Positions 14,014 to 42,603 of a stretch of DNA of 64,000 nt are shown piece by piece. Position 1 is the stretch's first letter. Each line of letters opens with the position of its first letter. The notes below the pieces were generated by a model. The model saw nothing but the letters and a program-made list of their open reading frames with translations. It was not told where the DNA came from and did no database searches. Source of the DNA: Escherichia coli (lineage in GTDB: Bacteria; Pseudomonadota; Gammaproteobacteria; Enterobacterales; Enterobacteriaceae). The position numbers and the translations under genes were made by a program. The DNA lies in NCBI RefSeq assembly GCF_041886205.1, contig NZ_CP169029.1; one strand, written 5' to 3'.

Positions 14014-14023
14014 GGCACACCTC

Positions 14024-14062
14024 TTTGCATGATTATTCGAAATTATTGTATTTTTATTCTGT
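14024..14062 (-). promoter_or_regulatory. candidate ArgR operator (tandem ARG-box-like sequence) at the argA promoter
   Basis: Minus-strand reading acagaataaaaatacaataatttcgaataatcatgcaaag directly upstream of the argA start resembles tandem 18-bp ARG boxes; argA is a known ArgR regulon member. Confidence 0.4.
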
Positions 14063-14244
14063 TTTTTCGCAGGGTGCAAGTGTAAATTTTATGCGAGAGC
14101 GACTTTTTTATCAGTAATGCCGTGAATATAAAAAGAATGTTTACCGTTTATTAGATGACAGATTATGCGTCTTTCGCTAAAGTTTCCGGTCAAATTAGTC
14201 GTTTACTTGTTACACAGCTTAGATTTCTTTTGCTCGGGAGAGGC

Positions 14245-15498
14245 ATGTCAGGATCCAACACTGCAATCAGCCGTCGTCGTTTACTGCAAGGCGCGGGTGC
14301 CATGTGGCTATTGAGCGTAAGTCAGGTCAGTCTGGCTGCGGTCAGCCAGGTCGTGGCGGTGCGCGTCTGGCCTGCGTCCAGCTACACCCGCGTGACGGTA
14401 GAATCAAATCGTCAGCTGAAATATAAGCAGTTCGCGTTGAGTAACCCGGAACGCGTGGTGGTGGATATCGAAGATGTAAACCTGAACTCGGTACTCAAGG
14501 GGATGGCGGCACAAATTCGTGCAGACGACCCGTTCATCAAGTCGGCGCGCGTCGGGCAATTTGACCCGCAAACCGTACGGATGGTTTTTGAATTAAAGCA
14601 AAACGTAAAACCGCAGCTGTTTGCCCTTGCGCCGGTCGCCGGGTTTAAAGAGCGTCTGGTGATGGACCTCTATCCGGCCAATGCACAGGATATGCAGGAC
14701 CCGCTGCTGGCGCTGCTGGAGGATTACAACAAAGGCGACCTCGAAAAGCAGGTGCCGCCAGCGCAAAGTGGTCCACAACCAGGTAAAGCAGGGCGCGATC
14801 GTCCGATTGTCATTATGCTTGACCCTGGCCACGGTGGCGAAGACTCCGGTGCGGTGGGGAAATACAAAACGCGCGAAAAAGACGTGGTATTGCAAATAGC
14901 TCGCCGTCTGCGCTCTCTGATCGAGAAAGAGGGCAATATGAAGGTGTACATGACGCGCAATGAAGACATCTTCATTCCGTTGCAAGTGCGCGTAGCAAAA
15001 GCCCAGAAACAGCGTGCTGACCTGTTTGTCTCTATCCATGCCGACGCCTTTACCAGTCGTCAGCCGAGCGGTTCCTCTGTGTTTGCGCTCTCAACCAAAG
15101 GTGCAACCAGTACTGCGGCAAAATATCTGGCACAAACCCAGAACGCCTCGGACTTGATTGGTGGCGTGAGCAAAAGCGGTGACCGCTATGTCGACCACAC
15201 CATGTTCGATATGGTGCAGTCGCTGACCATTGCTGACAGCCTTAAGTTTGGTAAAGCGGTACTGAATAAGCTCGGTAAAATCAACAAGCTGCATAAAAAT
15301 CAGGTTGAACAGGCCGGGTTTGCCGTACTAAAGGCACCAGATATTCCCTCCATTCTGGTCGAAACGGCGTTTATCAGTAACGTTGAGGAAGAGCGTAAAC
15401 TGAAAACGGCGACTTTCCAGCAGGAAGTTGCGGAGTCTATTCTTGCGGGAATTAAAGCGTATTTTGCCGATGGGGCGACGCTGGCGAGAAGGGGATGA
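14245..15498 (+). CDS. amiC: N-acetylmuramoyl-L-alanine amidase AmiC (417 aa, Tat signal)
   Basis: Internal ATG at 14245 (RBS gggagagg) gives [24 protein letters not shown]..., a twin-arginine signal; amidase_3 family; divergent from argA as in E. coli. Confidence 0.93.
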
Positions 15499-15507
15499 TG
15501 TTTTTAA

Positions 15508-15540
15508 TTTATTCAATGAATTTATGTTTCATTGAATAAA
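15508..15540. repeat. perfect 13-bp AT-rich inverted repeat (tttattcaatgaa / ttcattgaataaa, 7-nt loop) 10 bp after the amiC stop
   Basis: Read directly from sequence; lies at the left edge of the accessory island. Confidence 0.5.
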
Positions 15541-15689
15541 TATTATTTACATAAATGTTGAACGATGGTTTTGTGACTGCTGTCGAATATTTGAATATCG
15601 GCTTAAAAAATAAGCCTGTCATCTCTTTTATTAAGCACAATTCCGTGTAAGGTATACGCATTAGTTAATTATCTTGTAACTGTTAAATC

Positions 15690-15744
15690 AGGCAAGGCAA
15701 TGTTTGAAGTAATTATTACTTCTGACATGCCTTGCCTTTTTTTT
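15690..15744 (+). terminator. leader stem-loop plus U8 tract upstream of the antiterminator gene; candidate conditional (RAT-associated) terminator
   Basis: Outer stem aggcaaggca (15690-15699) pairs with tgccttgcct (15728-15737); inner palindrome gaagtaat-t-attacttc (15706-15722); followed by 8 T (15737-15744); ends 12 nt before RBS gggag and ATG 15757. Confidence 0.6.
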
Positions 15745-15756
15745 GGGAGCCATGGA

Positions 15757-16581
15757 ATGATCATCGAAAAAGTCATGAACAATAATTGTGTACAGGCATC
15801 GGTGAACGGACAGGAGGTTATCATTTCTGGGCCTGGCGTTGGTTACAATAAAAAATATGGTATGTCGGTCCCTGAGCATCCTGCAAACCGGATTTTTTAT
15901 GTCAGAAATGAGCAAAAAAATAAACTCTACAAATTGATTGAGCATGTGGGTATTGAGTATATTTTTGTTGCCGAAAAGATAGTGCATTATGCGGAGAGTA
16001 ATCTCGAAAAAAAACTCAATCCATCGCTACTACTGATTCTTGCTGATCACATTTCGAATGCAATATCCCGAGTCGTCTCAGGCATACAAATTAATAATGT
16101 TTTCCTTGAGGAAATCAAAGCGTTGTACAAAGCAGAGTATGCAATAAGTCGTGATGCATTAACAATCATTAATGAGCAATTTAGCGTTCAACTACCGGAT
16201 GATGAGATTGGTTTTATAGCATTGCATATTTTAAATAATTATGAAAATTCAGTTGATTATGAATCAGTAAGGATCATTGAGCTGTCTCAAAAAATCACGG
16301 AGCTTATTGAAGTTGTTTATAACAGAAGGGTGGACAGAAGTTCATTTAACTACTCCAGATTTATGATGCACCTTAAATATTTTTCTAGTCGTGTGTTATG
16401 TAATGAAAAAATAAAACAGAAAAATATTGGTGATATCTATGAGCAGTTTCTTGAAAAAGATTTTCAGTTACAACGTGCCATTCATGAAATTGAAAGATAT
16501 CTGTACGCAACTTTTAAATATGATTTGATTCTGGAAGAGAAACTATATCTTTCTATTCGCATCAAAGTATTAATGGACTAA
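15757..16581 (+). CDS. BglG/LicT-family transcriptional antiterminator (CAT RNA-binding domain + PRD domains), ~274 aa
   Basis: N-terminus MIIEKVMNNNCVQASVNGQEVIISGPGVGYNKK is the typical CAT-domain start; ATG 15757 is preferred over the track start 15700 because of RBS gggag and because 15700 lies inside the leader hairpin. Confidence 0.85.
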   Translation: MIIEKVMNNNCVQASVNGQEVIISGPGVGYNKKYGMSVPEHPANRIFYVRNEQKNKLYKLIEHVGIEYIFVAEKIVHYAESNLEKKLNPSLLLILADHISNAISRVVSGIQINNVFLEEIKALYKAEYAISRDALTIINEQFSVQLPDDEIGFIALHILNNYENSVDYESVRIIELSQKITELIEVVYNRRVDRSSFNYSRFMMHLKYFSSRVLCNEKIKQKNIGDIYEQFLEKDFQLQRAIHEIERYLYATFKYDLILEEKLYLSIRIKVLMD

Positions 16582-28484: not shown

Positions 28485-29216
28485 TCAGGCTGTTACCAAA
28501 GAAGTTGCAACCTGGCGCTCATCAGAAATAATGTGCGTTACCTCATCCAGATGCCCGATGCGGGCTTCCCCTGAACGATTAAATTTACTTTTATCAATCA
28601 ATAACAACGATTGCGCGGCACGTTTTAATAGCATCGATTTGTAATCAGCGTTGATGGCATTGGAGTCCCACAGTGCGCCGCTGCTATCGATCCCTTCACA
28701 AGAAAAAATAAACAGATCGATTTCCAGCGATTTAAGTTGGGAAATCAGCGAGGGATTGACGTAACAGCCATATTTGCGCTCAAGTGTGCCGCCGGAACTG
28801 ATCAGTTGAATGCGTTCGCGTTTACCGAGTTCATGGCAAATCGGATGGCTATTGGTGAAGACCTGAATGTTGATGTCAGGCAACTGGCGTGCCAGATACC
28901 AGCAAGTTGAACTGGCGTCTAAGGCTATCACCATCCCTTCTTCAATCCACGCGAGCGCCTCGCGCGCGATATCTGCTTTATGCGCATAATGGCTTTTCAG
29001 CCGGATGTGAAAGGGATCGCCACTGTCTTGATTTTGACGGTGGATATATTTAGCGCGTCCATGATTGCGCAGAATTTTACCCTGCGTCTGTAATTCATTG
29101 AGATCGCGACGAATGGTTTCTTTACTGACCTTTAGCTGTTCAGAGAGAGCTTCCGTGGTCAGGCTGGTATGGTTCAGCAGCAGGTCGACTATCGCTTGCT
29201 GGCGTGCCGCTTTCAT
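28485..29216 (-). CDS. fucR: L-fucose operon activator FucR (DeoR family, 243 aa)
   Basis: ATG at 29214-29216 gives MKAARQQAIVDLLLNHTSLTTEALSEQLKVSKETIRRDLNEL, a DeoR-type HTH. Confidence 0.94.
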   Translation of the reverse strand: MKAARQQAIVDLLLNHTSLTTEALSEQLKVSKETIRRDLNELQTQGKILRNHGRAKYIHRQNQDSGDPFHIRLKSHYAHKADIAREALAWIEEGMVIALDASSTCWYLARQLPDINIQVFTNSHPICHELGKRERIQLISSGGTLERKYGCYVNPSLISQLKSLEIDLFIFSCEGIDSSGALWDSNAINADYKSMLLKRAAQSLLLIDKSKFNRSGEARIGHLDEVTHIISDERQVATSLVTA

Positions 29217-29273
29217 ATTTTTCACCCCATCATTCGATAACCGCCCGCGTCATGCGGGCGTACCGGTATGAGA

Positions 29274-29696
29274 TTACGGTGTTACCCCTTTTTTTAAAAG
29301 AATATTCCCGTACTTCGCTCGTTCGCCTGTGATAACGATCGCAAAGGCTTTTTGCGCCCGTTCATAAAACGCAAAACGATTGATGCGGATGATGTCAGGA
29401 CACGGGGCTTGTAGTGAAAGCGCATTACGGTAACGTCGTTCTACTTCAGGATCGAGAGTATCACCTTCTACCGCTGCCATCATCACCAGCGGCGGTGCAT
29501 AACTGTCCAGTTCAAATAACGGGATAATCGCCTGGAGCAAGTCGCTCACCAACAGGCCATCAGCGCGGATCACCTGCGGTCCCATCGAATGGGCGGGAAA
29601 GTGAGCATCGGAAAAAATAATTTCATCTCCATGTCCCATCTCTGCCAGCACTTTCAATAGTTCGGGAGAAATTAACGGCGAAATTGTTTTCAGCAT
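29274..29696 (-). CDS. fucU: L-fucose mutarotase FucU (RbsD/FucU family, 140 aa)
   Basis: 140 aa; N-terminus [35 protein letters not shown]. Confidence 0.94.
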
Positions 29697-29697
29697 T

Positions 29698-31116
29698 TCA
29701 CACTTCCTCTATAAATTCAGGTTCAGTTTGCGGGTAGAAATAACGGTACTGATAATGAATCTGTGCACGGGCTTCTTCCGGGCTGTTAAATTCCCCTACG
29801 CCATACCAACCGAACAGCGCAGCTCCTGCGACGGTCGTTTCGGCATCGTCGAGAACTTTTACCGGAATATCAAGCATATTGGCTTTAATCTGATTCCACA
29901 ATGTGTTGCGACTTCCTCCGCCGACTAACAATAATTCAGAGGCTTTAAAGTGCCCGATTTTTTCCAGCATCTGTAGATTGCGCTGTAATTGCGCGGTTAA
30001 CCCTTCCAGCGCCGCGCGATAGAAATGCCCCCGCGTAGTATTAAGCGTCACTCCTTGCCAGCCAGCGTTCTGACACGACAATAAATCACACTGCATTTTC
30101 ACGCCATCCGCGCCAGGTGCGATCAGACGAGCTTCTTCAATCAACATTTGCCAGGGTGTTTCAGCCGTCCAGAACAGTTTTCTCACCCATTCCAGCACGC
30201 CGGATGCCAGCCATTGCATACCTGGGTTATACAACCCTGCCTGGCTATCCAGTTCGCAGGTGGAACCGGCGTACTGACTTAACAGCGAAGTATCAACCTG
30301 GGCGCTACGGACCATTAAAATTTCCCATGTACCGGAGGAGAGCACTGGTTCATTTTGTTCGGCACCAGCGCCAAAAAGGGCGAACTGGGTATCGTGACCT
30401 GCGGAAATCACCGGTATGCCAACGGGTAAGCCGAGCATTGCTGCGGCGCTGTTCTGTAGCGTACCAATCTGTTCACCCGCTTCCACCAGACGAGGGAAGA
30501 GTCGGCATGGAATACCGGTGGCTTGTAAAATTTGCGGACTGAAATCGCGTTGCTGGATATCCAGCATCTGGCTGGTTCCGGCCATCGTGATATCAGTAGT
30601 GAATTCGCCGGTTAAACGGTGGTTAATCAGCGACGAAATGAAGAGCCAGGCGTGCGCGCGTTCCAGCAGTTGTGGATGATTTTCTTTCAACCACACCAAC
30701 TTATATAACGTATTGAAACTAAAGGCTCCGACGCCAGAAATAGCCTGCAACCGCTGTGCGGAGATTAACCGTTTAATATTGTCCATAACCGCTGCTGTTC
30801 GCGGACATTTCCAGCTAATGATCGGATAGAGCAGATTGCCTTGCTTATCTACCAGAGCGCCATCCACACCAAAGGTGGTGACGGCGATACCGCGGATGTG
30901 GCATTCAGTCAGTTCACTATTGATTTGCCGACAGCAATCAGCAAAGCGTTGCAAAATGGCGTCTAAAGACCACTGGTGCCAGGTGTTGTTTTCCATCGCG
31001 ATATCGCTGGCATTAGGCGTTGAGGCGCGGGCAACAATTTTTCCCTGCCGATTAACCGCGATGGCCCTGACATTGGTCGCGCCACAGTCGAGTACCAGGA
31101 TAACTTCTTGTTTCAT
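29698..31116 (-). CDS. fucK: L-fuculokinase FucK (FGGY family, 472 aa)
   Basis: ATG at 31114-31116 with RBS aggag gives [21 protein letters not shown]; an alternative upstream start at 31146 would give 482 aa. Confidence 0.93.
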
Positions 31117-31224
31117 AATCGCTCCTGCAATATAGCCGGATAACATTGCTTATCCGGCTAACCACTCTTGCTTGTTCAGGCCCGGTAGCCGGAGCGACCG
31201 GGCATCACATCAGGGAGTAATGTA

Positions 31225-33000
31225 TTAACGCTTGTACAACGGACCGTAGTTCTGGCAAGCGCGGTAATCCTGGCCTTCAATATCCATGCCGTGCGCAGCC
31301 CAGGCAGAAGGACGATACACTTTGGTCTCTTCAACGTTGTGCATACATACCGGGATACGCAGCATGGAGGCGAGAGTGATAAAGTCTGCGCCAACGTGGC
31401 CGATGGTCAGAACCCCATGGTTAGCGCCCCAGTTCGCCATTACCGAGTACACATCCGTAAACGGCCCTTTACCGGTGAGGCGCGGTGCAAACCAGGTGGT
31501 TGGCCAGGTTGAGTTGGTGCGTTTGTTGAGGATGTCATGCACATCCTTCGGCAATTCCACGCTCCAGCCTTCCGCGATTTGCAGTACCGGTCCCAGGCCT
31601 TTGATGATATTGACACGGGTCATGGTGAACGGGACGCCGCCTTCGGTAAGGAAGCGGGAAGAGTAACCGCCGCCACGGAAGTATTCGTGGATCGCCGGGC
31701 ACCATTCGGTAGCGGCGAGGCAAGCGTCAGCCTCTTGCTGAGAGATTTTCCAGTGCGGCTTCATCGTCGGGTTACCTTCGCTGTCGCGTTGTTTACAGGA
31801 ACCGTCCAGCGCAGCAGAACCTGAGTTGATCAAATGGATGATGCCGTGTTCTGCCAGTCCGTCGAGTTTATGCCCCGTTACACGCTCAATTGCTTCTGGT
31901 GACCAGTAGGTACGCACATCGGCAAATACCTGAGCGGTGCCGGTGAGCTGGTGACCCATTAGCATTGCCACGCCGTTAAGACTGTCGTTTTCGGTCGCCA
32001 CGACAAAGGGTTCGCGCACGCCATTCCAGTCAAATGAACTGTTGAGGATCGCTTCGGCAGTGTCACCATTGGGATATTGATCGGTCCAGTGGCGTTGTCC
32101 CTGGAAGCCCGCAGCGATGGCGTTGTAGCCAAGTGATTCTTCCACGCGACCAATATCGGCCAGTTTGCTGTTGCCTTGCATCATGTCGCGGATACACATC
32201 GCCATCAGTAAACTTTCGCGCAGAACTGCGCGGCTTTGCTCGGCATTGCGTTGATACTGTTTGTTATTTTCATCTTCGCCGTAGCGGAAGTTTTTATCAG
32301 CCCAGGCCAGCGCCATTTCCAGTTCGGCTTCGTCGTAAATCTTCTGATCGATACGGCGACGCAGTTCGGTCATATCCACCGCCTGGACTTTCATTCCCAG
32401 CCAGGATTCAAAGAAGTTGTGATCAACGATGGAACCAGCGATACCCATCGAAACGCCGCCCAGCGACAGATAGCTTTTACCTTTCATGCTGGCGACTGCC
32501 AAACCGGCGCGGGCAAAGCGCAGCAGTTTTTCTTCAACATCGGCTGGAATCGATGTGTCATCGGCATCCTGAACGTCATGACCGTAAATGGAGAATGCCG
32601 GGATGCCTTTCTGGCTGTGAGCTGCCAGAGCCGCTGCCAGGTAAACAGCGCCGGGACGTTCAGTGCCGTTAAAGCCCCAAATGGCTTTCGGGCGGGTTGG
32701 ATCCATGTCGATGGTTTCACTGCCATAGCACCAGCAAGGCGTTACCGTAATGGTGAGGCCTACATTCTGGCTGCTGAATTTTTCTTCGCAAGCAGCGGCT
32801 TCAGCCATACCCGCGATACAGGTATCGGAAATGACACACTCGACGGCAGCTCCGCAGGCATGGCGCAGTTTCTCGGTCAGCAGTGTGGCCGTGGCTTTCG
32901 CCATATTCATTGTTTGTTCTTCAAGCGACTCACGAACACCCATGCGACGACCGTCAATAACCGGGCGGATACCAATTTTCGGTAACGTATTAATTTTCAT
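31225..33000 (-). CDS. fucI: L-fucose isomerase FucI (591 aa)
   Basis: 591 aa; N-terminus [34 protein letters not shown]; RBS gagga. Confidence 0.95.
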
Positions 33001-33082
33001 CAGGATTCCTCATCTCGCTTTATTGGCGCTCTGCTAAGGCGGAGAAAGGAAACCACCGAAGCAGTAGTATTGGTCATTATTT

Positions 33083-33098
33083 GCTAACTCGAGTTAGC
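33083..33098. promoter_or_regulatory. perfect 16-bp palindrome GCTAACTCGAGTTAGC (copy 1), candidate LacI-family operator, about 83 bp upstream of the fucI start
   Basis: Read directly from sequence; the central CG and the 16-bp twofold symmetry are typical of LacI/GalR-family operators. Confidence 0.55.
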
Positions 33099-33321
33099 TT
33101 AGGTTTGTAGGCTTTTTATGCACAACTTTTTTGTTGTTGAAATGTGAGGGGCTTCACGAGAAGTGGTTAAAATACGATCTCTGTCAAATTATTATTTAGC
33201 GGGAGAAAAATAAATTTTACGTATAATCATATGGTTATTAGATTTTAATGGTTATGCATCACAGTTTTAACTCAAATGATTTGGCTAATTTGTATACCTA
33301 AAATAGCTTTAAAAGGCGATC

Positions 33322-33337
33322 GCTAACTCGAGTTAGC
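33322..33337. promoter_or_regulatory. perfect 16-bp palindrome GCTAACTCGAGTTAGC (copy 2), candidate operator about 133 bp upstream of the ABC transporter ATG
   Basis: Identical to copy 1, 239 bp away; a consensus TATAAT hexamer lies at 33222-33227 on the plus strand between the two copies. Confidence 0.55.
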
Positions 33338-33469
33338 AAAATGCGAAGAATAGATTGATGCGATGAATATTTATTCAAAGGTTATTCGTATCACAGTGGA
33401 GATGGCTTTAGTAGCGACGTTTATGCCGTACTTCACATTTTCAGTTTCTGATTATTGAGGAAAGCTGCA

Positions 33470-34969
33470 ATGTCCGAAACATTTTTGCAAATGAAGCATA
33501 TCACCAAACGCTTTCCTGGAGTGTTGGCGCTTAATGACGTGCAATTTTCCCTACGCCGGGGCGAGGTTCATGCATTATTAGGTGAAAATGGTGCAGGAAA
33601 ATCTACCTTAATGAAAATTTTGTCGGGGGTTTATCAACCTGATGAAGGCGAAATAATTTTTGAAGATAAACCAGTCTCATTTTCTGATCCGTTAAGTGCG
33701 CAAAACGTAGGTATTACTATTATTCACCAGGAATTTAATTTATTTCCCGAGCTTACAGTAGAAGAAAATATTTTTATCGGCAGGGAGTTTTGTAAAAAAA
33801 ATCGCTGGCGTCTGGATGAAAAACAGCAACGCCAGGCGACGATTGAAATTTTGCAAAAATTAAATTTGGCGATCAAACCAGATACTCTGGTTGCCGACCT
33901 TACGGTAGCTCAGCAGCAGATGGTAGAAATTGCCAAGGCCATTTCAGTTAACGCCAGGATTCTCATTATGGATGAACCTACTGCGGCGTTAACAGAAACT
34001 GAAATTGAAAGCTTATTTCGCGTCACCCGGTTATTGAAAGAGCAGGGGACCGGCATTGTTTATATCTCCCACCGTCTGGAAGAGTTGGCGCTAATTGCCG
34101 ACCGTGCGACTGTAATGCGTGATGGTCAGTACATCAGCACGGTGGATTATGAGTGCGTAAAAATCAGCGATCTGATTGCCATGATGGTTGGTCGCGATTT
34201 AGGGAATATCTATCCCCGCCGCGAGGCCTTGCAGCAGCGGATTCCGGTTCTGGAGGTAAACGGACTGACGCGCAAAGGCGTCCTGAACGATATTAATTTT
34301 ACGCTTTATCGTGGCGAGATCCTCGGCTTTGCCGGACTGATGGGCGCGGGGCGTACTGAACTTGCGCGTGCGATTTTTGGTGCGGATTCTATTGACAGCG
34401 GAACGCTAAAATTAAATGGTAAGGAAACCGTTATTAAAGATATTTCGGATGCTATTCAGCAGGGAATTAGTTACCTGACGGAAGACCGCAAAAAAGAAGG
34501 GCTGGCGCTGAATTTATCTGTTGAACGAAATATTATGTTAGGAAACTACCCTGAATATTCCGATCGTTTTGGGAATGTCGATTCGCGTCGTTGCCAACAA
34601 ACCAGTGAGGAACAGGTAAAAGCGTTAAGGATTAAAACGCCAAATCTTGAACAGGCGGCATTAAATCTAAGTGGAGGAAACCAGCAGAAAATTATAATTG
34701 CACGTTGGGTGTGTAAAGATACTGATATTTTAATCTTCGATGAACCCACTCGCGGCATTGATGTTGGCGCCAAACTGGAAATCTATGAGTTAATGAATCG
34801 CCTGGTGGCAAAAGGGAAATCAATCATCATGATCTCCTCTGAATTGCCTGAGGTGTTAGGAATGTGCGACCGTATTTTAGTGATGCGCAGTGGTCGAATT
34901 ACCGGCGAACTTAGCGCAAAAGAAGCGACACAAGAAAAAATTATGCAATACGCGACGTTAGAGGATTAA
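33470..34969 (+). CDS. sugar ABC transporter ATP-binding protein with two fused ABC domains (CUT2 family, RbsA/MglA-like), ~499 aa
   Basis: ATG 33470 preferred over TTG 33455 (RBS gaggaaag); Walker A GENGAGKST, signature LSGGNQQK in the second half, and total length indicate a duplicated ABC ATPase. Confidence 0.9.
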   Translation: MSETFLQMKHITKRFPGVLALNDVQFSLRRGEVHALLGENGAGKSTLMKILSGVYQPDEGEIIFEDKPVSFSDPLSAQNVGITIIHQEFNLFPELTVEENIFIGREFCKKNRWRLDEKQQRQATIEILQKLNLAIKPDTLVADLTVAQQQMVEIAKAISVNARILIMDEPTAALTETEIESLFRVTRLLKEQGTGIVYISHRLEELALIADRATVMRDGQYISTVDYECVKISDLIAMMVGRDLGNIYPRREALQQRIPVLEVNGLTRKGVLNDINFTLYRGEILGFAGLMGAGRTELARAIFGADSIDSGTLKLNGKETVIKDISDAIQQGISYLTEDRKKEGLALNLSVERNIMLGNYPEYSDRFGNVDSRRCQQTSEEQVKALRIKTPNLEQAALNLSGGNQQKIIIARWVCKDTDILIFDEPTRGIDVGAKLEIYELMNRLVAKGKSIIMISSELPEVLGMCDRILVMRSGRITGELSAKEATQEKIMQYATLED

Positions 34970-34972
34970 ATT

Positions 34973-35956
34973 ATGACTATCTCTGTAACCTCTCCAGACA
35001 GTAATAATAAGAAAATAAAGATAAATAAAGAACTTTTGATGCGTCTTGCGCCTCTTTTTAGCTTAATTATATTAGTGCTGTTTTTTAGTTTCAGCTCTCC
35101 CTTTTTCTTTAATACCGAAAATATCATGACGATTGCTCTGCAAACGTCGGTTATCGGCATTATGGCCATTGGGGTAACTTTCGTCATTATTACCGCGGGC
35201 ATCGATCTTTCATTGGGCTCCGTGGTGGCTTTTTCTGGTGTCGCCGTGGGGATTTGCGCCACACTGGGCCTGCCGCTGCCAGTGTGTATTATTGCCGGTG
35301 TTTTAGCCGGTGGAATGTGCGGCTATGTGAATGGTTTGTTGGTCACTAAAATGACCATTCCACCATTTATCGCTACCTTGGGCCTGATGATGTCCGTCAG
35401 AGGTATCAATATGGTGATGACCGACGGGCGCGCCATCTATTTTGCCGATTACCCGATGTTCAAAACGCTCGCTCAGGGACGCTTATTTGATGTGCTGCCT
35501 TATCCTGTTTTCTACCTTGTCATTGTAGCGCTTGTCGGCGCTTACATCCTGAAGAAAACCGTCATTGGTCGCTATGTCTATGCCGTAGGCAGTAATGAAG
35601 TTGCTGCTCATCTTTCTGGTATTAAAGTTCAGCGCGTGAAAATTTTCGTCTATGCCTTCTGTGGATTATTAACGGGGATTGCAGGTGTCATTCTGGCATC
35701 TCGTCTCAACTCCGGACAACCGACGGTAGGTGTGGGTTATGAACTGGAAGCTATTGCCGCGGTAGTGATTGGCGGAACCAGCTTAATGGGCGGTATTGGC
35801 ACTATTGGCGGCACAATCATTGGCGCTTTCATTATGAGTGTACTGAAAAATGGCCTCAATTTAATGGGCGTCTCCCAGTTCTGGCAAATGGTCGCGATGG
35901 GCGTCGTTGTGGTCGCTGCCGTTTACCTCGATACATTACGCAAAAAGATTCGTTGA
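34973..35956 (+). CDS. sugar ABC transporter permease (RbsC/AraH-like, 327 aa)
   Basis: Polytopic membrane protein; ATG 4 nt after the ATPase stop with RBS gagga. Confidence 0.88.
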   Translation: MTISVTSPDSNNKKIKINKELLMRLAPLFSLIILVLFFSFSSPFFFNTENIMTIALQTSVIGIMAIGVTFVIITAGIDLSLGSVVAFSGVAVGICATLGLPLPVCIIAGVLAGGMCGYVNGLLVTKMTIPPFIATLGLMMSVRGINMVMTDGRAIYFADYPMFKTLAQGRLFDVLPYPVFYLVIVALVGAYILKKTVIGRYVYAVGSNEVAAHLSGIKVQRVKIFVYAFCGLLTGIAGVILASRLNSGQPTVGVGYELEAIAAVVIGGTSLMGGIGTIGGTIIGAFIMSVLKNGLNLMGVSQFWQMVAMGVVVVAAVYLDTLRKKIR

Positions 35957-36029
35957 CTTAGGCTCCCTGTTTTATCGGGAAACAACTGCCCTGACGTTAA
36001 GGGTGATTCACTCAGAACGGAGTACAACA

Positions 36030-36980
36030 ATGAAAACCAGGCATTTTATCTATGCGTTATCTCTGCTGGCTTGCGTAAGTTCCAGCGCACTGGCGAAGGA
36101 TTTAAATCTTCCGGTTGTTAGTAAAGGTTTCCAACATGAATTCTGGCAAACCGTAAAAATGGGGACTGAAGCTGCGGCTAAAGAGTTGGGGGATAAAACC
36201 AGCTATGTTGGCCCGGCTGATGAAACGCAAATAGCCGAGCAAATTCAGTTAGTCGAAAATGCGATGGCGCAGAAACCGAATGGCTTGCTTCTGGCAGCCC
36301 TCGACGCGAATGCGCTCGCCCCACTGGTAGAAACGGCAAATTCACGCGGTATCAAAGTGGTGACCTTTGATTCAGGCATCAATTCAGACATTCCGGTGAG
36401 TTTTGTCGCCACCAATAACCGTAAAGCAGGTGCTCAGGCAGCTGATGCCTTAGCCTCGCAGGTAAATAATAAAGGGAAAGTTGGGATTATCGCGCACGTT
36501 GCAGGAACATCTTCCGCTATTGAACGCTCGGAAGGCTTCATGGAGCGTATGAAAGAAAAATATCCTGACATTAAAGTCTTACCCGTTCAGTACAGCGATG
36601 GTGACCCGCAAAAAGCGATGGATAAAACTATCGATATGATTCAGGCCAATCCCGATCTTGCTGGGATCTATGGCACCAATGAAGGTTCAACGCTCGGGGT
36701 GGCGAATGCCATTGATAGCCAGAATCTGAAAGGTAAGGTGAAGGTCATTGGTTTTGATAGTACGGAAGCGATTATTAACTTCCTGAAGAACGGCGTCATT
36801 CAGGGCTTTGTTGTTCAGGATGCATACCAGATTGGCTATCAAGGGATCAAAACGTTGAACGCGGCCCTTTCGGGGCAAGCCGTTGAAAAAGAGATCGATA
36901 TTCCCGTGAAATTTGTTAATGCCGAGAATATTAACACGCCAGAAATCGACAAACTCCTGCACCCATTCGGTAAGAAATAA
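36030..36980 (+). CDS. periplasmic sugar-binding protein (RbsB-like, type I PBP fold), ~316 aa
   Basis: Internal ATG at 36030 gives MKTRHFIYALSLLACVSSSALA, a signal peptide; the track ORF upstream extension overlaps the permease and lacks signal-peptide character. Confidence 0.88.
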   Translation: MKTRHFIYALSLLACVSSSALAKDLNLPVVSKGFQHEFWQTVKMGTEAAAKELGDKTSYVGPADETQIAEQIQLVENAMAQKPNGLLLAALDANALAPLVETANSRGIKVVTFDSGINSDIPVSFVATNNRKAGAQAADALASQVNNKGKVGIIAHVAGTSSAIERSEGFMERMKEKYPDIKVLPVQYSDGDPQKAMDKTIDMIQANPDLAGIYGTNEGSTLGVANAIDSQNLKGKVKVIGFDSTEAIINFLKNGVIQGFVVQDAYQIGYQGIKTLNAALSGQAVEKEIDIPVKFVNAENINTPEIDKLLHPFGKK

Positions 36981-37032
36981 AAAATTGGGGATGAATTTTC
37001 ATCCCCGTTATCTCCAGCGTCAGGGAGGCTTT

Positions 37033-38613
37033 ATGCACAACGGTTATTTTCTCGGTGTCGATGTCGGATCGGCCAGTGTCAGGGCAGGCGTTTACAGTGC
37101 CAGTGGCCACAGGCTGGCATTCGCTACTGCGCCCGTCTCCCAGTTTCGCCCTGGCGGCGAGCGTGTCGAACAGTCTTCGGCAGAGATCTGGCAACAAGTT
37201 TGTAAAACGGTGAAAGAGGCGACAGCTTTGGCAGGCATCCCCATTTCCGCAATTCGCTCACTGGGTTTTGACGCTACCTGCTCGCTGGTTGTTCTTGATG
37301 AACAAGGCCAGGGTTTAGCGGTTTCGTCCGGTGGATCTGCGAATCACGACATTATTATGTGGATGGATCATCGTGCAACTGTCGAGACGGCGCAGATTAA
37401 CGCAATGAAGGATCCCGCATTGCGCTACGTTGGCGGCGAAGTGAGCGTCGAGATGGAGTTACCAAAGTTACGTTGGTTGAAGACGCATCTACCGCAAACC
37501 TGGCAGGCCGCTCATCGCTTTTTCGATCTGGCGGATTTTCTGGTCTGGAAAGCAACAGGGCGAGACGTCGCGGGATTATGCACGCTAACGTGTAAATGGA
37601 ATTATCTAGCTCATGAGCAACGCTTTAGCCATAGCTTACTGGAATCGATAGACCTGACCGATATGCTTGAAAGAATTCCTGCCAACATTCTTCCGCCTGG
37701 CGCTGCCGTGGGAACGTTAACCGCCACAGCTGCTGAAGAGTTAGGATTAACGACTAATGTTATCGTGGCCAGTGGCTTGATTGATGCCCATGCCGGTGGC
37801 GTGGCGCTGGCTGGCGCTCACCCATCAGGAACGCTGGCATTGATAAGCGGAACGTCGAACTGCCATATGCTGTGTAGTGAAAAAGAGATATTCACCCCTG
37901 GCGTCTGGGGGCCATACTGGTCGGCCATGTTGCCAAATTACTGGCTAACCGAAGGCGGGCAAAGCGCCGCAGGGGCGCTGGTGGAGTGGACGCTTCAGGA
38001 GTCAGGGGCAAGCGCAAATCTTTTTCACAAGGCGCAGCAACGCGGATGTCATCCGATTCAACTGATTAATGAATGGGTAGCAGCCCTTGAAGCTAACGAG
38101 TCAGAACCCACACGAAATTTACATGTGCTTGCCGATCATCACGGCAACCGTTCGCCACGAGCGCGGCCCGATGCCAGAGGCAGTGTTTATGGCTTAACAC
38201 TGGAGCGTGGTGAAAATCAGCTCGCGCGACTTTATCTTGCGACTTTACAGGCAATAGCCTTTGGCACCAGACATATTATTGAAACTCTGCGGGAAAATGG
38301 GCATACCATTACCCGATTAACATTATGTGGTGGTGCAACGCACAACCCTTTATGGCTACGCGAATATGCAGACGTGACAGGTTGCGATATCCACCTGATG
38401 CAAGAAGAAGATGCCGTTACGTTGGGCGCAGCAATTAGCGGCGCTGTTGCCAGCGGAGCATGGGGGGATTTTACATCTGCGTGTAAAGCAATGGTTGAAG
38501 CCGGAGAGATTATTCAGGTAAATCCACAACGCCGTGAATTTTTAGAGCGTAAATACCGGGTTTACCTGACGCTTTGGGAGCAACAACAGGCGGTTAACCA
38601 ACTGATGCAATAA
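37033..38613 (+). CDS. FGGY-family carbohydrate kinase, pentulose-kinase-like subgroup (~526 aa)
   Basis: Internal ATG at 37033 (RBS cagggagg) gives MHNGYFLGVDVGSASVRAGVY, the FGGY N-terminal motif; GTSNCHM motif mid-protein; the track ORF start at 36913 overlaps the binding-protein gene. Confidence 0.87.
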   Translation: MHNGYFLGVDVGSASVRAGVYSASGHRLAFATAPVSQFRPGGERVEQSSAEIWQQVCKTVKEATALAGIPISAIRSLGFDATCSLVVLDEQGQGLAVSSGGSANHDIIMWMDHRATVETAQINAMKDPALRYVGGEVSVEMELPKLRWLKTHLPQTWQAAHRFFDLADFLVWKATGRDVAGLCTLTCKWNYLAHEQRFSHSLLESIDLTDMLERIPANILPPGAAVGTLTATAAEELGLTTNVIVASGLIDAHAGGVALAGAHPSGTLALISGTSNCHMLCSEKEIFTPGVWGPYWSAMLPNYWLTEGGQSAAGALVEWTLQESGASANLFHKAQQRGCHPIQLINEWVAALEANESEPTRNLHVLADHHGNRSPRARPDARGSVYGLTLERGENQLARLYLATLQAIAFGTRHIIETLRENGHTITRLTLCGGATHNPLWLREYADVTGCDIHLMQEEDAVTLGAAISGAVASGAWGDFTSACKAMVEAGEIIQVNPQRREFLERKYRVYLTLWEQQQAVNQLMQ

Positions 38614-38677
38614 GACAAAAGTTGAAAATACTTTTATGATTGTGATTTGACGTCTGGATGTTAACTGGGAAATACCT

Positions 38678-39676
38678 ATGGCTAAAACAGTAGAGCAGAT
38701 AGCCAGCGACCTGAATTTATCGGTTACGACCGTGCGACTGGTGCTAAATGGAAAAGCGGAACAATATCGAATCAGCGTCAAAACCCAAACGCGTATCAAT
38801 GAATATGTTGAACGCTATGGTTATATCATTAATCATTCCGCTCGCAGCCTTAAGCTTAACAAAACTGATACATTAGGGTTGATTGTTCCCAACATATCCA
38901 ACGTCTTTTTTGCTACGCTGGCAGAAAAACTCGAACAACGCTGTCGACGTTCCGGATATCAACTTACAATCAGTTGCACTTATGATGATGTTGACTATGA
39001 AAATAAATTGACGAAAGCATTTATCGCACGAAATGTAGATGGTCTTTTTATTGTTCCTTCGACGCTGGAAAATCAGCAGCATCATTTACGCAAAATTCGT
39101 AAGCCCATGGTTTTACTCGATCGTGATTTTAAATATACCGATAACGCATTGGTAGAGAGTAATAATATTTCTGGCGGAGAAAAGCTGACGCAAAATATTC
39201 TTGAGGCCGGGCAGACTCCAGTATGGTTTTTGCTGGGAGATGCCGGTTTGCCGAGTATCAGCGATCGTCTGACAGGTTATTTGAATGCGTTGGCAAAAAA
39301 AGGGATTACCCATCGCGATTGGGTGCGGGAAGGTCCGGTAAATACTCCGGAAGGCGGCTATGTCATTATGGAAAAACTCATTGAAGAGCAGGGATGTCCG
39401 CAGGCATTTATCGCCTCGTCTTTGCCTGTGCTTGAAGGCGCTGTCCGCGCGATTCGCGACCGTCTTGGCGCTGTACCGCCAGAAATCAATATTGGCACTT
39501 TCGATGAACATCCTATGCTGGGATTTCTCGCCAACAATGTCTGGTCAATGCAGCAGGATGAAAATGCCTGGGCAGAAAAAGCGTTCGAAATGATGTTAAG
39601 CGCGATCGAAGAAAGACCAGTCAAAAAAACAGTTAAAGTAGAAATGAAATTAATTAAGCGCATAAGAAAAAAATAA
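38678..39676 (+). CDS. LacI/GalR-family transcriptional regulator (332 aa)
   Basis: N-terminal HTH region followed by a periplasmic-binding-protein-like sugar-binding fold (LGLIVPNISNVFFATLAEKLE). Confidence 0.88.
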   Translation: MAKTVEQIASDLNLSVTTVRLVLNGKAEQYRISVKTQTRINEYVERYGYIINHSARSLKLNKTDTLGLIVPNISNVFFATLAEKLEQRCRRSGYQLTISCTYDDVDYENKLTKAFIARNVDGLFIVPSTLENQQHHLRKIRKPMVLLDRDFKYTDNALVESNNISGGEKLTQNILEAGQTPVWFLLGDAGLPSISDRLTGYLNALAKKGITHRDWVREGPVNTPEGGYVIMEKLIEEQGCPQAFIASSLPVLEGAVRAIRDRLGAVPPEINIGTFDEHPMLGFLANNVWSMQQDENAWAEKAFEMMLSAIEERPVKKTVKVEMKLIKRIRKK

Positions 39677-39808
39677 TAATCGCCAAAAGATATCAGGCTA
39701 CTGAACAATGATATTCAGTGGCCTCCCCTTACTAAAAATAACCCCGTCTTCATTTGCGGTGCTGTTTTACGCAACAAGGCGAGCTGAAACTGTATCTGGA
39801 GAATAGAA

Positions 39809-40456
39809 ATGGAAAGAACACGTTTATCCCGTGAAATAATTGAAACCTGTCTGGAAATGACGCGCCTTGGGTTAAATCAGGGGACAGCGGGGAATGTCAG
39901 CACACGTTTTGAAAACGGCATGTTGATTACTCCCAGCGGTATTCCTTATGAAAGAATGACGGAGAATATGATTGTCTATGTTGATGGCAACGGCAAATAC
40001 GAAGAAGGTAAGATTCCTTCCAGCGAGTGGCGTTTCCATATGGCAGCCTATCAAAGCAGACCGGATGCCAACGCGGTTGTTCACAATCATGCCGTTCATT
40101 GCACGGCAGTTTCCATTCTTAACCGACCGATCCCCGCTATTCACTACATGATTGCGGCGGCGGGCGGTAATTCTATTCCTTGCGCGCCTTATGCGACCTT
40201 TGGAACACGTGAACTTTCTGAACATGTTGCGCTGGCTCTCAAAAATCGTAAGGCAACTTTGTTACAACATCATGGGCTTATCGCTTGTGAGGTGAATCTG
40301 GAAAAAGCGTTATGGCTGGCGCATGAAGTTGAAGTGCTGGCGCAACTTTACCTGACGACCCTGGCGATTACGGACCCGGTGCCAGTGCTGAGCGATGAAG
40401 AGATTGCCGTAGTGCTGGAGAAATTCAAAACCTATGGGTTACGGATTGAAGAGTAA
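39809..40456 (+). CDS. fucA: L-fuculose-phosphate aldolase (class II aldolase, 215 aa); N-terminal ~70 residues appear divergent from the K-12 allele
   Basis: 215 aa; residues from about 75 onward (SSEWRFHMAAYQSRPDANAVVHNHAVHCTAVSIL...KFKTYGLRIEE) match E. coli FucA as recalled; the N-terminal part carries many substitutions. Confidence 0.9.
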   Translation: MERTRLSREIIETCLEMTRLGLNQGTAGNVSTRFENGMLITPSGIPYERMTENMIVYVDGNGKYEEGKIPSSEWRFHMAAYQSRPDANAVVHNHAVHCTAVSILNRPIPAIHYMIAAAGGNSIPCAPYATFGTRELSEHVALALKNRKATLLQHHGLIACEVNLEKALWLAHEVEVLAQLYLTTLAITDPVPVLSDEEIAVVLEKFKTYGLRIEE

Positions 40457-40483
40457 TTTCGTAAAGCAACAAGGAGAAGGATG

Positions 40484-41632
40484 ATGGCTAACAGAATGAT
40501 TCTGAACGAAACGGCATGGTTTGGTCGGGGTGCTGTTGGGGCTTTAACCGATGAGGTGAAACGCCGTGGTTATCAGAAGGCGCTGATCGTCACCGATAAA
40601 ACGCTGGTGCAATGCGGCGTGGTGGCGAAAGTGACCGATAAGATGGATGCGGCAGGGCTGGCATGGGCGATTTACGACGGCGTAGTGCCCAACCCAACAA
40701 TTACTGTCGTCAAAGAAGGGCTCGGTGTATTCCAGAATAGCGGCGCGGATTACCTGATTGCTATTGGTGGTGGTTCTCCACAGGATACTTGTAAAGCGAT
40801 TGGTATTATCAGCAACAACCCGGAATTTGCCGATGTGCGTAGCCTGGAAGGACTTTCCCCGACCAATAAACCCAGTGTACCGATTCTGGCAATTCCCACC
40901 ACAGCAGGCACTGCGGCAGAAGTGACCATTAACTACGTGATCACTGACGAAGAAAAACGGCGCAAGTTTGTTTGCGTTGATCCGCATGATATCCCGCAGG
41001 TGGCGTTTATTGACGCTGACATGATGGATGGTATGCCTCCAGCGCTGAAAGCTGCGACGGGTGTCGATGCGCTCACTCATGCTATTGAGGGGTATATTAC
41101 CCGTGGCGCGTGGGCGCTAACCGATGCGCTGCACATTAAAGCGATTGAAATCATTGCTGGGGCGCTGCGAGGATCGGTTGCTGGTGATAAGGATGCCGGA
41201 GAAGAAATGGCGCTCGGGCAGTATGTTGCGGGTATGGGCTTCTCGAATGTTGGCTTAGGGTTGGTGCATGGTATGGCGCATCCACTGGGCGCGTTTTACA
41301 ACACTCCACACGGTGTTGCGAACGCCATCCTGTTACCGCATGTCATGCGCTATAACGCTGACTTTACCGGTGAGAAGTACCGCGATATCGCGCGCGTTAT
41401 GGGCGTGAAAGTGGAAGGTATGAGCCTGGAAGAGGCGCGTAATGCCGCTGTTGAAGCGGTGTTTGCTCTCAACCGTGATGTCGGTATTCCGCCACATTTG
41501 CGTGATGTTGGGGTACGCAAGGAAGACATTCCGGCACTGGCGCAGGCGGCACTGGATGATGTTTGTACCGGTGGCAACCCGCGTGAAGCAACGCTTGAGG
41601 ATATTGTAGAGCTTTACCATACCGCCTGGTAA
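40484..41632 (+). CDS. fucO: L-1,2-propanediol oxidoreductase / lactaldehyde reductase (iron-containing alcohol dehydrogenase, 382 aa)
   Basis: MANRMILNETAWFGRGAVGALTDEVKRRGYQKALIVTDK; RBS aaggaga; second of two adjacent ATGs preferred. Confidence 0.94.
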   Translation: MANRMILNETAWFGRGAVGALTDEVKRRGYQKALIVTDKTLVQCGVVAKVTDKMDAAGLAWAIYDGVVPNPTITVVKEGLGVFQNSGADYLIAIGGGSPQDTCKAIGIISNNPEFADVRSLEGLSPTNKPSVPILAIPTTAGTAAEVTINYVITDEEKRRKFVCVDPHDIPQVAFIDADMMDGMPPALKAATGVDALTHAIEGYITRGAWALTDALHIKAIEIIAGALRGSVAGDKDAGEEMALGQYVAGMGFSNVGLGLVHGMAHPLGAFYNTPHGVANAILLPHVMRYNADFTGEKYRDIARVMGVKVEGMSLEEARNAAVEAVFALNRDVGIPPHLRDVGVRKEDIPALAQAALDDVCTGGNPREATLEDIVELYHTAW

Positions 41633-41650
41633 ATGCGCTGATGTGATAAT

Positions 41651-41683
41651 GCCGGATACGACGCTAGCCGCGTCTTATCCGGC
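41651..41683. repeat. REP-like palindromic element (gccggatacgacg / cgtcttatccggc) downstream of fucO
   Basis: Read directly from sequence between convergent fucO and xni; matches the E. coli REP family pattern GCCGGATA...TATCCGGC. Confidence 0.6.
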
Positions 41684-41736
41684 ATATAAGTGCATTAAAT
41701 TCAATGTGTTGATAATCGTTTGCATACGGCACGTCG

Positions 41737-42603
<867 letters not shown>

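Follow-up and report, generated by a model that had tools for sequence, protein, structure and literature searches.

A fucP-less fucose locus of Escherichia coli that probably combines L-fucose and D-arabinose utilization

The window, that is, the whole 64-kb stretch of Escherichia coli DNA analyzed here, carries a fucose locus in which fucR, fucU, fucK, fucI, fucA, and fucO are all present and five further genes lie between fucI and fucA, all on the fucAO strand. The genes of the locus are as follows.

28485-29225, minus strand: fucR
29274-29696, minus strand: fucU
29698-31146, minus strand: fucK
31225-33000, minus strand: fucI, K-12-like save for codons 3-5
33470-34969, plus strand: ABC ATPase with two fused cassettes, 499 aa (RefSeq: sugar ABC transporter ATP-binding protein)
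34973-35956, plus strand: ABC permease, 327 aa, a single gene
36030-36980, plus strand: periplasmic sugar-binding protein, 316 aa, with an N-terminal signal peptide
37033-38613, plus strand: DarK, an FGGY-family pentulose kinase (D-ribulokinase), 526 aa
38678-39676, plus strand: LacI-family regulator, 332 aa
39809-40456, plus strand: fucA, intact and mosaic
40481-41632, plus strand: fucO

The original prediction had described these six fuc genes, with correct coordinates, as well as the five-gene content of the interval between fucI and fucA, and its claim that fucP is missing was borne out by a tblastn search with K-12 FucP, which found no match in the whole 64 kb (best E = 0.64). The start of the module is AT-rich, as had also been noticed, with GC contents of 0.36 (469-bp intergenic region) and 0.44 (ATPase gene) vs. 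0.55 in fucI and 0.54 in fucO. The arrangement is not the common E. coli configuration: of 5426 complete genomes, 382 have the module (there were 383 matches, but one is just a fucA fragment), as against 5039 genomes with fucP, and fucP and the module are complementary alleles.

This locus is real, and it is not new. It belongs to a minority type of E. coli fucose locus that was described earlier, the one known from strains B, BL21, and C; both the missing fucP and the ABC-DarK-LacI module have been documented for those strains, so that the finding in itself adds nothing to what was known. The same five genes lie between fucI and fucA in those strains, fucP is likewise absent, the segment shares 99.9-100% nucleotide identity with their genomes, and the annotation is the same. 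The D-arabinose cluster of B strains has been published (PMC3446290, PMC6150544), darK has been described between fucI and fucA, its position here (PMC12307932 section 10; PMC6150544), and PMC12307932 attributes its publication to Elsinghorst and Mortlock in 1994. In 2023, the form with an ABC transporter in place of fucP was published as "Variant 2" of the fucose operon (PMC10221146), and a module frequency of about 7% has already been published. The published descriptions of the B-type locus consulted here make no mention of junctions within fucI and fucA, operators, or a distribution across genera. What is added here is the placement of the junctions inside fucI and fucA, the cross-genus layout, the paired palindromes, and the occurrence of transporter orthologs in fucose operons; the interpretation initially offered for the locus is partly supported.

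Like the K-12 fuc regulon (fucPIKUR and fucAO, controlled by FucR and CRP), the locus lies between rlmM and xni, and identity to K-12 is 98-100% in fucI, fucK, fucU, fucR, fucO, and the 3' two-thirds of fucA. It differs in lacking fucP, in the replacement of the 546-bp fucA-fucP control region by DNA with no similarity to it, and in the addition of an ABC importer, a second kinase, and a LacI-type regulator. Alignments to K-12 delimit the replaced segment.

32986-40027: allelic cassette of 7042 bp, from fucI codon 5 to fucA nucleotide 219

The cassette thus comprises the first fucI codons, the divergent control region, the five genes, the intergenic region, and the first 219 nucleotides of fucA. 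At its start, fucI nucleotides 7-15 differ from K-12; at its end, nucleotides 1-219 of fucA, belonging to the cassette allele, are 27% different from K-12, whereas nucleotides 220-648 are K-12-like (0.9% different). The gene content originally assigned to the interval 33001-39808 therefore stands and its bounds do not, since the foreign DNA starts inside fucI and ends inside fucA, at about 32986 and 40027. The cassette takes the place of 2129 bp of K-12 DNA, including the whole fucA-fucP regulatory region, for a net extra length of 4.9 kb; the restriction map of Elsinghorst and Mortlock (1994) reportedly gave about 5.2 kb. Outside the cassette, identity to K-12 is 96-100%; the interior is without a counterpart in K-12, and the junctions are identical in three E. 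coli haplotypes.

One explanation for this structure is recent horizontal acquisition: the module would have entered as an island between fucI and fucA, and fucP would have been lost by deletion. The GC content of the module, mostly 0.36-0.47 and below that of the flanks, and its presence in just 7% of genomes would fit such an event, and Elsinghorst and Mortlock are said to have written of "acquisitive evolution." We reject recent insertion as very unlikely, however, because the junctions lie within the fucI and fucA coding sequences and diversity within E. coli is as high in the cassette (1.15-1.35%) as in its flanks (0.9-2.7%). There are, moreover, no mobility genes, direct repeats, or tRNA at the cassette ends, and E. 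whittamii carries the module at the same rlmM-flanked position with species-level divergence, its identity across the module (86-98%) being similar to that of the flanking genes. The cassette is an old allelic replacement rather than an insertion. It takes the place of fucP, the divergent promoters controlled by FucR and CRP, and the 5' end of fucA together, and homologous recombination within fucI and fucA probably swaps it as one unit.

The fucP-less layout extends beyond E. coli to E. whittamii, Citrobacter, Enterobacter, Lelliottia, Huaxiibacter, Atlantibacter, and Affinibrenneria. This architecture was seen in 8 genera, and the transporter is present beside fucI in every fucP-less fuc locus recovered. 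In at least five such loci, those of E. whittamii, Huaxiibacter, C. freundii M-21, Atlantibacter, and Affinibrenneria, there is no fucR beside fucU, a count that leaves out the Lelliottia and Enterobacter loci, where the sequence ends too near fucU or fucK.

The control region between the divergent genes and the intergenic region upstream of fucA contain the following elements.

33083-33098: perfect 16-bp palindrome O1, GCTAACTCGAGTTAGC, with a central CG; candidate operator, 83 bp upstream of the fucI start codon
33322-33337: O2, the same 16-bp palindrome as O1; candidate operator, 133 bp upstream of the ABC ATPase start codon
33143-33158: CRP-like site, TGTGA-N6-TCACG, between the divergent genes
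33273-33283: short palindrome, CAAATGATTTG, with CAAA...TTTG invariant in a 9-sequence alignment
39695-39724, plus strand: hairpin in the regulator-fucA intergenic region, from RNA folding, with no T run after it and arms conserved in Escherichia and Citrobacter

The O1/O2 sequence occurs in two exact copies in the 64 kb, both in the control region, as against 0.17 copies expected in the 64 kb with up to 3 mismatches. Both palindromes are conserved with 0-2 mismatches in 8 genera in which the surrounding DNA is 64-80% identical, and their start-to-start distance, 239 bp here, is 239-240 bp in Escherichia, Citrobacter, Lelliottia, Huaxiibacter, Enterobacter, and Affinibrenneria. The TGTGA and TCACG halves of the CRP-like site are invariant in 9 of 9 aligned genera or species, and the site would lie near -42 of a weak fucI -10 element (TTTATG, 33115-33120). 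Promoter placements are tentative, as a promoter scan returned 16 promoter-like sites, weak matches to consensus, and was not above the expectation from shuffled sequence (11.5). A terminator scan likewise gave 7 hits vs. 7.8 expected from shuffled sequence, and a search of 32800-40200 against Rfam at a permissive threshold found no RNA family.

The regulator aligns over residues 4-328 to the whole of the TIGR02417, PRK11303, RbsR, and PurR models and is thus a full-length member of the LacI/GalR family. Its nearest subfamily is Cra/FruR, but with 236 bits against a cut-off of 390 for TIGR02417 and 218 against 385 for PRK11303, it falls below both cut-offs and was rejected as a Cra/FruR equivalog; it is a relative. 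Judging from their conservation, O1 and O2 are probably the operators of this regulator. Bound there, it would act on the start regions of fucIKUR and of the ABC-darK-regulator(-fucAO) genes, which the two palindromes flank together with the conserved CRP site; D-arabinose and L-fucose, or the corresponding ketoses, are its probable effectors. The lack of fucR beside fucU in at least five fucP-less loci favors this model of control, and the retention in E. coli of a FucR that is 100% K-12-like counts against it. Some 25 other loci have the same palindrome upstream of a darK homolog, and in many of them a gene homologous to that of the LacI-type regulator is present as well. In three genera, the palindrome is also found upstream of an operon adjoining the locus that encodes a GH172 protein and a GPH symporter.

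Taken together, these observations allow a wider interpretation, which we put forward tentatively, at a little under an even chance. The LacI-type protein ("DarR"), and not FucR, may be the native master switch of the locus and part of a Proteobacteria-wide regulon built around D-arabinose, D-ribulose, and DarK, with fucIKU placed under D-arabinose control through O1 and O2; the two fuc alleles would then represent a long-standing trans-species polymorphism kept in Escherichia and Citrobacter, and the same operator would mark two further operons. If correct, the interpretation would explain the induction of B-type strains, but not K-12, by D-arabinose. Both further operons would point to natural sources of D-arabinose: one encodes the GH172 glycosidase and GPH symporter, and the other, a Serratia-type operon encoding DarK, an isomerase, a DHDPS-type lyase, BNR, and TctABC, could constitute a catabolic pathway for Kdo-type ulosonic acids.

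As for the transporter, the RbsA, XylG, AraG, and AlsA models each match the ATPase over its full length, with scores under their equivalog cut-offs, and single-cassette models match it in two stretches. Matches of the permease to RbsC, AraH, and AlsC likewise stay under the cut-offs, and its orthologs carry PF02653, while homologs of the binding protein carry PF13407 and PF00532. The N-terminus of the binding protein, MKTRHFIYALSLLACVSSSALA, reads as a signal peptide, and its AlphaFold model (pLDDT 91.8) has a two-lobe fold for which the top PDB matches are sugar-binding proteins. A fused ATPase of about 500 aa, a permease of the RbsC/AraH type (BPD_transp_2), and a type I binding protein with a signal peptide place the system in CUT2 (TC 3.A.1.2). 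Within that family, all three components score below every NCBIfam equivalog cut-off for Rbs, Ara, Xyl, Als, Mgl, Ytf, and Lsr (RbsA, 589 vs. 745; RbsC, 304 vs. 398; AlsB, 128 vs. 335). A PADLOC search of the five proteins returned generic ABC and AAA ATPase matches only, and a defense-system role was rejected. The best solved relatives of the binding protein are 4RXT (E = 1.4e-54, 188.7 bits) and 4WUT. The former we take to be a D-arabinose complex, and the latter is a D-fucose complex according to a preprint.

In Vibrio, Endozoicomonas, and a Clostridiales contig, complete L-fucose operons include orthologs of all three transporter parts, at 56-75% identity. The Vibrio operon (DeoR-ABC-permease-SBP-fucI-fucK-fucU-fucA-fucO) and the Clostridiales operon (ABC-SBP-fucU-fucI-kinase-aldolase-diol dehydratase, with an SBP ortholog at 56% identity) are without DarK, the second FGGY gene of the Vibrio locus having been rejected as not DarK-like; the Endozoicomonas fucose operon has both kinases. 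These operons, together with the transporter in every fucP-less fuc locus, lend support to the alternative in the original prediction, namely that fucose uptake proceeds through the ABC system. We propose that the binding protein, permease, and ATPase import L-fucose and its stereochemical analog D-arabinose. A three-component CUT2 importer tied to fucose catabolism has a precedent in Clostridium phytofermentans, where Cphy_2010-2012 is induced 58-82-fold by fucose (PMC3557285), although, unlike in the window, no DarK and no LacI-type partner are described for it.

A narrower possibility is that the transporter is specific for D-arabinose or D-ribulose, like the Rbl system of Citrobacter rodentium and the Aau system of EHEC, and that L-fucose enters carriers only by unrelated low-affinity systems. 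The transporter shares its strand and probably its operon with darK, the BL21 metabolic model assigns D-arabinose uptake to it (DARBabcpp, PMC6150544), and K-12 ΔfucP still grows slowly on fucose (PMC10221146), implying that other entry routes exist. Rbl and Aau, which handle D-ribulose and L-arabinose, are also CUT2-type systems, and Rbl is paired with an FGGY D-ribulokinase, as here, both feeding D-ribulose 5-phosphate (PMC12307932). Nevertheless, the narrower reading is unlikely. The window binding protein is distant from AauA (9I1M; 69.5 bits, E = 2.9e-18, compared with 1.4e-54 for 4RXT), whereas AauA and RblA are about 60% identical to each other; the context of the window transporter is the fuc locus, unlike that of Rbl and Aau; and the fuc-locus DarK clade has been set apart from Rbl (PMC12307932). 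The presence of orthologs in the DarK-less fucose operons of Vibrio and Clostridiales and the retention of the transporter beside fucI throughout the 8 genera also argue against it, as do three clinical isolates with the B-type allele that fermented fucose (PMC10221146). Growth of laboratory strains on fucose, which is poor in BL21 (PMC10221146) and absent in REL606 (PMC3446290), is in both cases confounded by fucA::IS1, and aldolase-positive B revertants grow on L-fucose without fucP (PMC10221146 discussion).

The kinase passes the TIGR01315 model for FGGY pentulose kinases (531.4 bits vs. a cut-off of 408.7) and is 100% identical to the DarK protein of BLR(DE3) and E. coli B. Phosphorylation of D-ribulose by E. 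coli B DarK is reported to have been described by others in the 1994 darK paper; the same paper is said to have put fucP beside fucI in strain B, a position at odds with the genome. In K-12, the conversions of L-fucose to L-fuculose and of D-arabinose to D-ribulose are established activities of FucU and FucI, and FucI here is 99% identical to the K-12 enzyme; the same pair would supply both ketoses. L-Fuculose would be handled by FucK, FucA, and FucO, and D-ribulose by DarK.

The product of DarK bears on the role of FucA. Characterized D-ribulokinases yield D-ribulose 5-phosphate (PMC3245297 table). In B-lineage laboratory strains, fucA is broken by IS1 (41 of 41 B-lineage genomes), whereas the fucA of the window strain is intact, and D-arabinose supports growth of both REL606 and BL21(DE3) (PMC3446290, PMC6150544; scored "++" in PMC3446290). 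Because fucA::IS1 is common to all B-lineage genomes, growth on D-arabinose indicates a kinase branch without need for FucA. Both the kinase family and this independence of FucA suggest that DarK forms D-ribulose 5-phosphate, which would then enter the pentose phosphate pathway.

It had also been proposed that the module and the FucA and FucO enzymes could make up a self-contained route for an unknown sugar or deoxy-sugar, proceeding through uptake, phosphorylation, aldol cleavage, and reduction; the reading weighed here has the phosphate at position 1. The module genes do lie on the fucAO strand, and the end of the regulator gene is separated from fucA by 24-25 bp in Lelliottia, Huaxiibacter, and Enterobacter, a gap that makes co-transcription likely. 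FucA can reportedly cleave D-ribulose 1-phosphate in K-12 mutants (LeBlanc and Mortlock, 1971), which would also suit such a route. The proposal is nonetheless unsupported, and we regard it as extremely improbable: the kinase is DarK, its substrate is already assigned, and its pentulose-kinase family is one whose characterized D-ribulokinases make the 5-phosphate (PMC3245297). B-lineage strains grow on D-arabinose despite fucA::IS1 (PMC3446290), and Chimaeribacter has darK and the regulator with fucI but without fucA, fucK, and fucO.

We therefore consider the window to hold the B-type fuc allele, probably a combined locus for L-fucose and D-arabinose utilization that works in the manner proposed above. 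The IS1 in fucA confounds whatever BL21 or REL606 might suggest about fucose uptake, and carriers with an intact fucA are available in the window strain, E. coli C, and isolates such as LHM10-1. With the whole FucR/CRP control region replaced, the conserved pair of candidate operators provides a concrete model for induction by D-arabinose. The candidate operator also ties DarK-type kinases to other operons, which may reveal the sources of D-arabinose used by gut and soil bacteria.

K-12 FucP had no match across the 64-kb window (tblastn; best E-value, 0.64), bearing out the original prediction that fucP is missing, and the gene content between fucI and fucA was read the same way by an ORF map, NCBIfam scans, and the RefSeq annotation of an identical genome:

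28485-33000, minus strand: fucR, fucU, fucK, fucI
33470-34969, plus strand: two-cassette ABC ATPase
34973-35956, plus strand: permease
36030-36980, plus strand: periplasmic binding protein (SBP)
37033-38613, plus strand: FGGY kinase (DarK)
38678-39676, plus strand: LacI-family regulator
39809-40456, plus strand: fucA
40481-41632, plus strand: fucO

The start of this module is AT-rich, as had been noted, with a GC content of 0.36 across the 469 bp between fucI and the ATPase gene and 0.44 within the latter, versus 0.55 in fucI. Separately, the fucO-xni intergenic region (41600-41800) is only ~72% identical to K-12 between genes at 97-100%; it is a small variable spot with no relation to the module.

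Strains B, BL21, BLR, and C of E. coli, along with many isolates, carry the 6.8-kb interval at 99.9-100% identity, and the nucleotide search proposed earlier to establish strain distribution places it in a minority: of 5426 complete genomes, 383 gave a match, single copy and chromosomal in every case (one of the matches covers no more than a fragment of fucA), and fucP was found in 5039. The 382 full carriers and the fucP genomes sum to 5421 of 5426, in keeping with fucP and the module being alternative alleles of one locus. One carrier, strain HNSQ2209 (NZ_CP137737.1, hit H40), has an IS5-like ISKpn26 element within the module. Among 1058 genomes, Saif et al. 2023 described 50 in which an ABC transporter takes the place of fucP, as it does in 3 of 40 isolates; BL21 is their type strain for the variant (PMC10221146). 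The D-arabinose gene sets of REL606 (Yoon et al. 2012; PMC3446290) and BL21(DE3) (Kim et al. 2018; PMC6150544) were placed between fucA and fucI. The largest Escherichia D-ribulokinase clade of Cottam et al. 2025 is DarK, an insertion in the L-fucose locus (PMC12307932, section 10), for which they cite Elsinghorst & Mortlock 1994. The original description is accurate and the feature genuine, but ordinary in that it had been reported before; the additions made here, useful but modest, are the cassette boundaries, cross-genus conservation, a candidate operator pair with a putative wider regulon, and a caveat concerning fucA::IS1.

Alignment with K-12 indicates that the exchanged cassette extends beyond both start codons. 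Differences in fucI are confined to nt 7-15 (MKINT against MKKIS), and fucA differs at 59 positions (27%) over nt 1-219 versus 4 (0.9%) over nt 220-648, so the cassette covers about 32986-40027 (7042 bp). Its K-12 counterpart, which it replaces, is a 2129-bp stretch comprising fucP, the 5' third of fucA, and the whole 546-bp fucA-fucP control region, to which no similarity is left in the window. Three E. coli haplotypes are 1.15-1.35% apart within the cassette, similar to the 0.9-2.7% of their flanks; their intragenic junctions are identical, and neither mobility genes nor repeats are present at the cassette ends, a picture at odds with a recent island. The cassette is an old allele, swapped through homologous recombination at fucI and fucA. 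The module of E. whittamii is 86-98% identical to that of E. coli, like its neighboring genes, and the boundary predates E. coli, since fucA divergence between K-12 and E. whittamii also steps from 30% to 9.8% at nt 219.

Outside E. coli, a DarK scan of one genome per species recovered the fucP-less layout, fuc(R)UKI divergent from ABC-permease-SBP-DarK-regulator-fucA(-fucO), in E. whittamii (at the same rlmM-flanked site), eight Citrobacter species, C. freundii M-21, Lelliottia, Huaxiibacter, Enterobacter hormaechei, Atlantibacter, and Affinibrenneria (without an adjacent regulator). E. coli retains fucR, as does the C. youngae group; the gene is absent in E. whittamii, whose rlmM lies directly next to fucU (L003 2250-2299), and from the fetched DNA of the Huaxiibacter, C. 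freundii M-21, Atlantibacter, and Affinibrenneria loci (L013, L015, L016, L018), an assessment made without Lelliottia and Enterobacter, whose loci end too near fucU or fucK. A partial binding protein (P0022) 97% identical to that of the window is recorded in Escherichia marmotae, yet its representative genome is not among the DarK hits, and the two alleles may therefore also segregate within that species.

The divergent control region contains two identical 16-bp palindromes, GCTAACTCGAGTTAGC, at 33083 (O1) and 33322 (O2), which have at their center the CG characteristic of operators of the LacI family and occur nowhere else in the 64 kb (0.17 expected by chance with ≤3 mismatches). Both are kept with 0-2 mismatches at a spacing of 239-240 bp in Escherichia, Citrobacter, Lelliottia, Huaxiibacter, Enterobacter, and Affinibrenneria, while the DNA around them falls to 64-80% identity; C. 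freundii M-21 and Atlantibacter have a recognizable O1 only. A CRP-like site (TGTGA-N6-TCACG, 33143-33158) is invariant in 9/9 aligned sequences, and promoter positions are tentative because a consensus promoter scan did not rise above background. The same palindrome lies 30-100 bp upstream of DarK homologues at about 25 further loci in Alpha-, Beta-, and Gammaproteobacteria (L035/L088, L020, L021, L025, L042, L057, L062, L076, and others), many also with a homologous LacI-type gene. The regulator comes closest to the Cra/FruR models, under cut-off for both. The Chimaeribacter locus, which is fucI-darK-regulator-GPH-GH172 only, and the loci without fucR point to the LacI-type protein as the putative native regulator of D-arabinose and L-fucose genes as one regulon. 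The regulator gene ends 24-25 bp before fucA in three genera, implying co-transcription; Escherichia and Citrobacter have a 123-232 bp spacer containing a hairpin (39695-39724; 11-bp stem, no T run) with conserved arms, and a second nested stem lies at about 39747-39802 (fold z-score -2.3). In O178:H19 strain 2012C-4431 (L087 11678-12703), the regulator is annotated 9 codons longer (1026 vs 999 bp), implying that its C-terminus or stop codon is altered in that haplotype.

A third copy of the palindrome precedes an operon that encodes a GH172 (DUF2961) protein and a GPH symporter and adjoins the locus in Lelliottia (L012 10949-13793), Huaxiibacter (L013 about 13379-16221), and Chimaeribacter (L017 12704-15624). 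As exo-α-D-arabinofuranosidases belong to GH172 (PMC10509167), this suggests D-arabinofuranosides as a natural D-arabinose source. In Serratia marcescens (L035/L088; L088 4511-14454), the palindrome lies upstream of a DarK homologue in an operon encoding this FGGY kinase, a Fucose_iso_C-like isomerase, a DHDPS-family lyase, a BNR_2 propeller, TctCBA, and a LacI-type regulator (56% identical). Kdo is a 3-deoxy-ulosonic acid cleaved by aldolase to D-arabinose and pyruvate, and, speculatively, the operon could be a catabolic route for such an acid.

D-Arabinose is the five-carbon analogue of L-fucose. All three transporter parts match the CUT2 pattern, each under every substrate-specific NCBIfam cut-off. 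The solved structures nearest to the binding protein are both structural-genomics entries from Agrobacterium: 4RXT (E = 1.4e-54, 36% identity), whose ligand we take to be D-arabinose, and 4WUT, with D-fucose; AauA (9I1M) is only a distant relative (E = 2.9e-18). Fucose loci elsewhere contain orthologues of each of the three parts (56-75% identity), which supports the alternative originally offered, ABC uptake of fucose: in a Vibrio operon without DarK (DeoR-ABC-permease-SBP-fucI-fucK-fucU-fucA-fucO), in an Endozoicomonas locus that encodes homologues of FucK as well as DarK, and in a Clostridiales contig adjoining fucU-fucI-kinase-aldolase-diol dehydratase. One CUT2 transporter of C. phytofermentans is induced 58-82-fold by fucose (PMC3557285), L-fucose supports the growth of aldolase-positive strain B revertants despite their having no fucP (PMC10221146, discussion), and a BL21 model assigns the transporter to D-arabinose (PMC6150544). 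We conclude that its primary association is with the fucose pathway. Given the analogy between the two sugars and the assignment in the BL21 model, their shared uptake would be the most economical reading.

The kinase matches its BLR(DE3) counterpart at 100% identity and exceeds the cut-off of the FGGY pentulose-kinase model TIGR01315 (531 vs 409 bits); the product of characterized D-ribulokinases is the 5-phosphate (PMC3245297). IS1 lies within fucA in 41 of 41 B-lineage genomes, including REL606, BL21(DE3), B, and ATCC 11303 (in BLR(DE3) at L001 13250-14017, equal to about 40249 in the window fucA), and fucA of the window strain is intact. REL606 and BL21(DE3) nevertheless grow well on D-arabinose (PMC3446290, PMC6150544), so its catabolism bypasses FucA, which argues for entry as D-ribulose 5-phosphate and against the new pathway of aldol cleavage and reduction via FucA and FucO first envisaged. 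The fucA::IS1 insertion also has implications for the poor or absent growth of BL21 and REL606 on fucose in comparisons with K-12, as it confounds the published attribution of this phenotype to the missing fucP.
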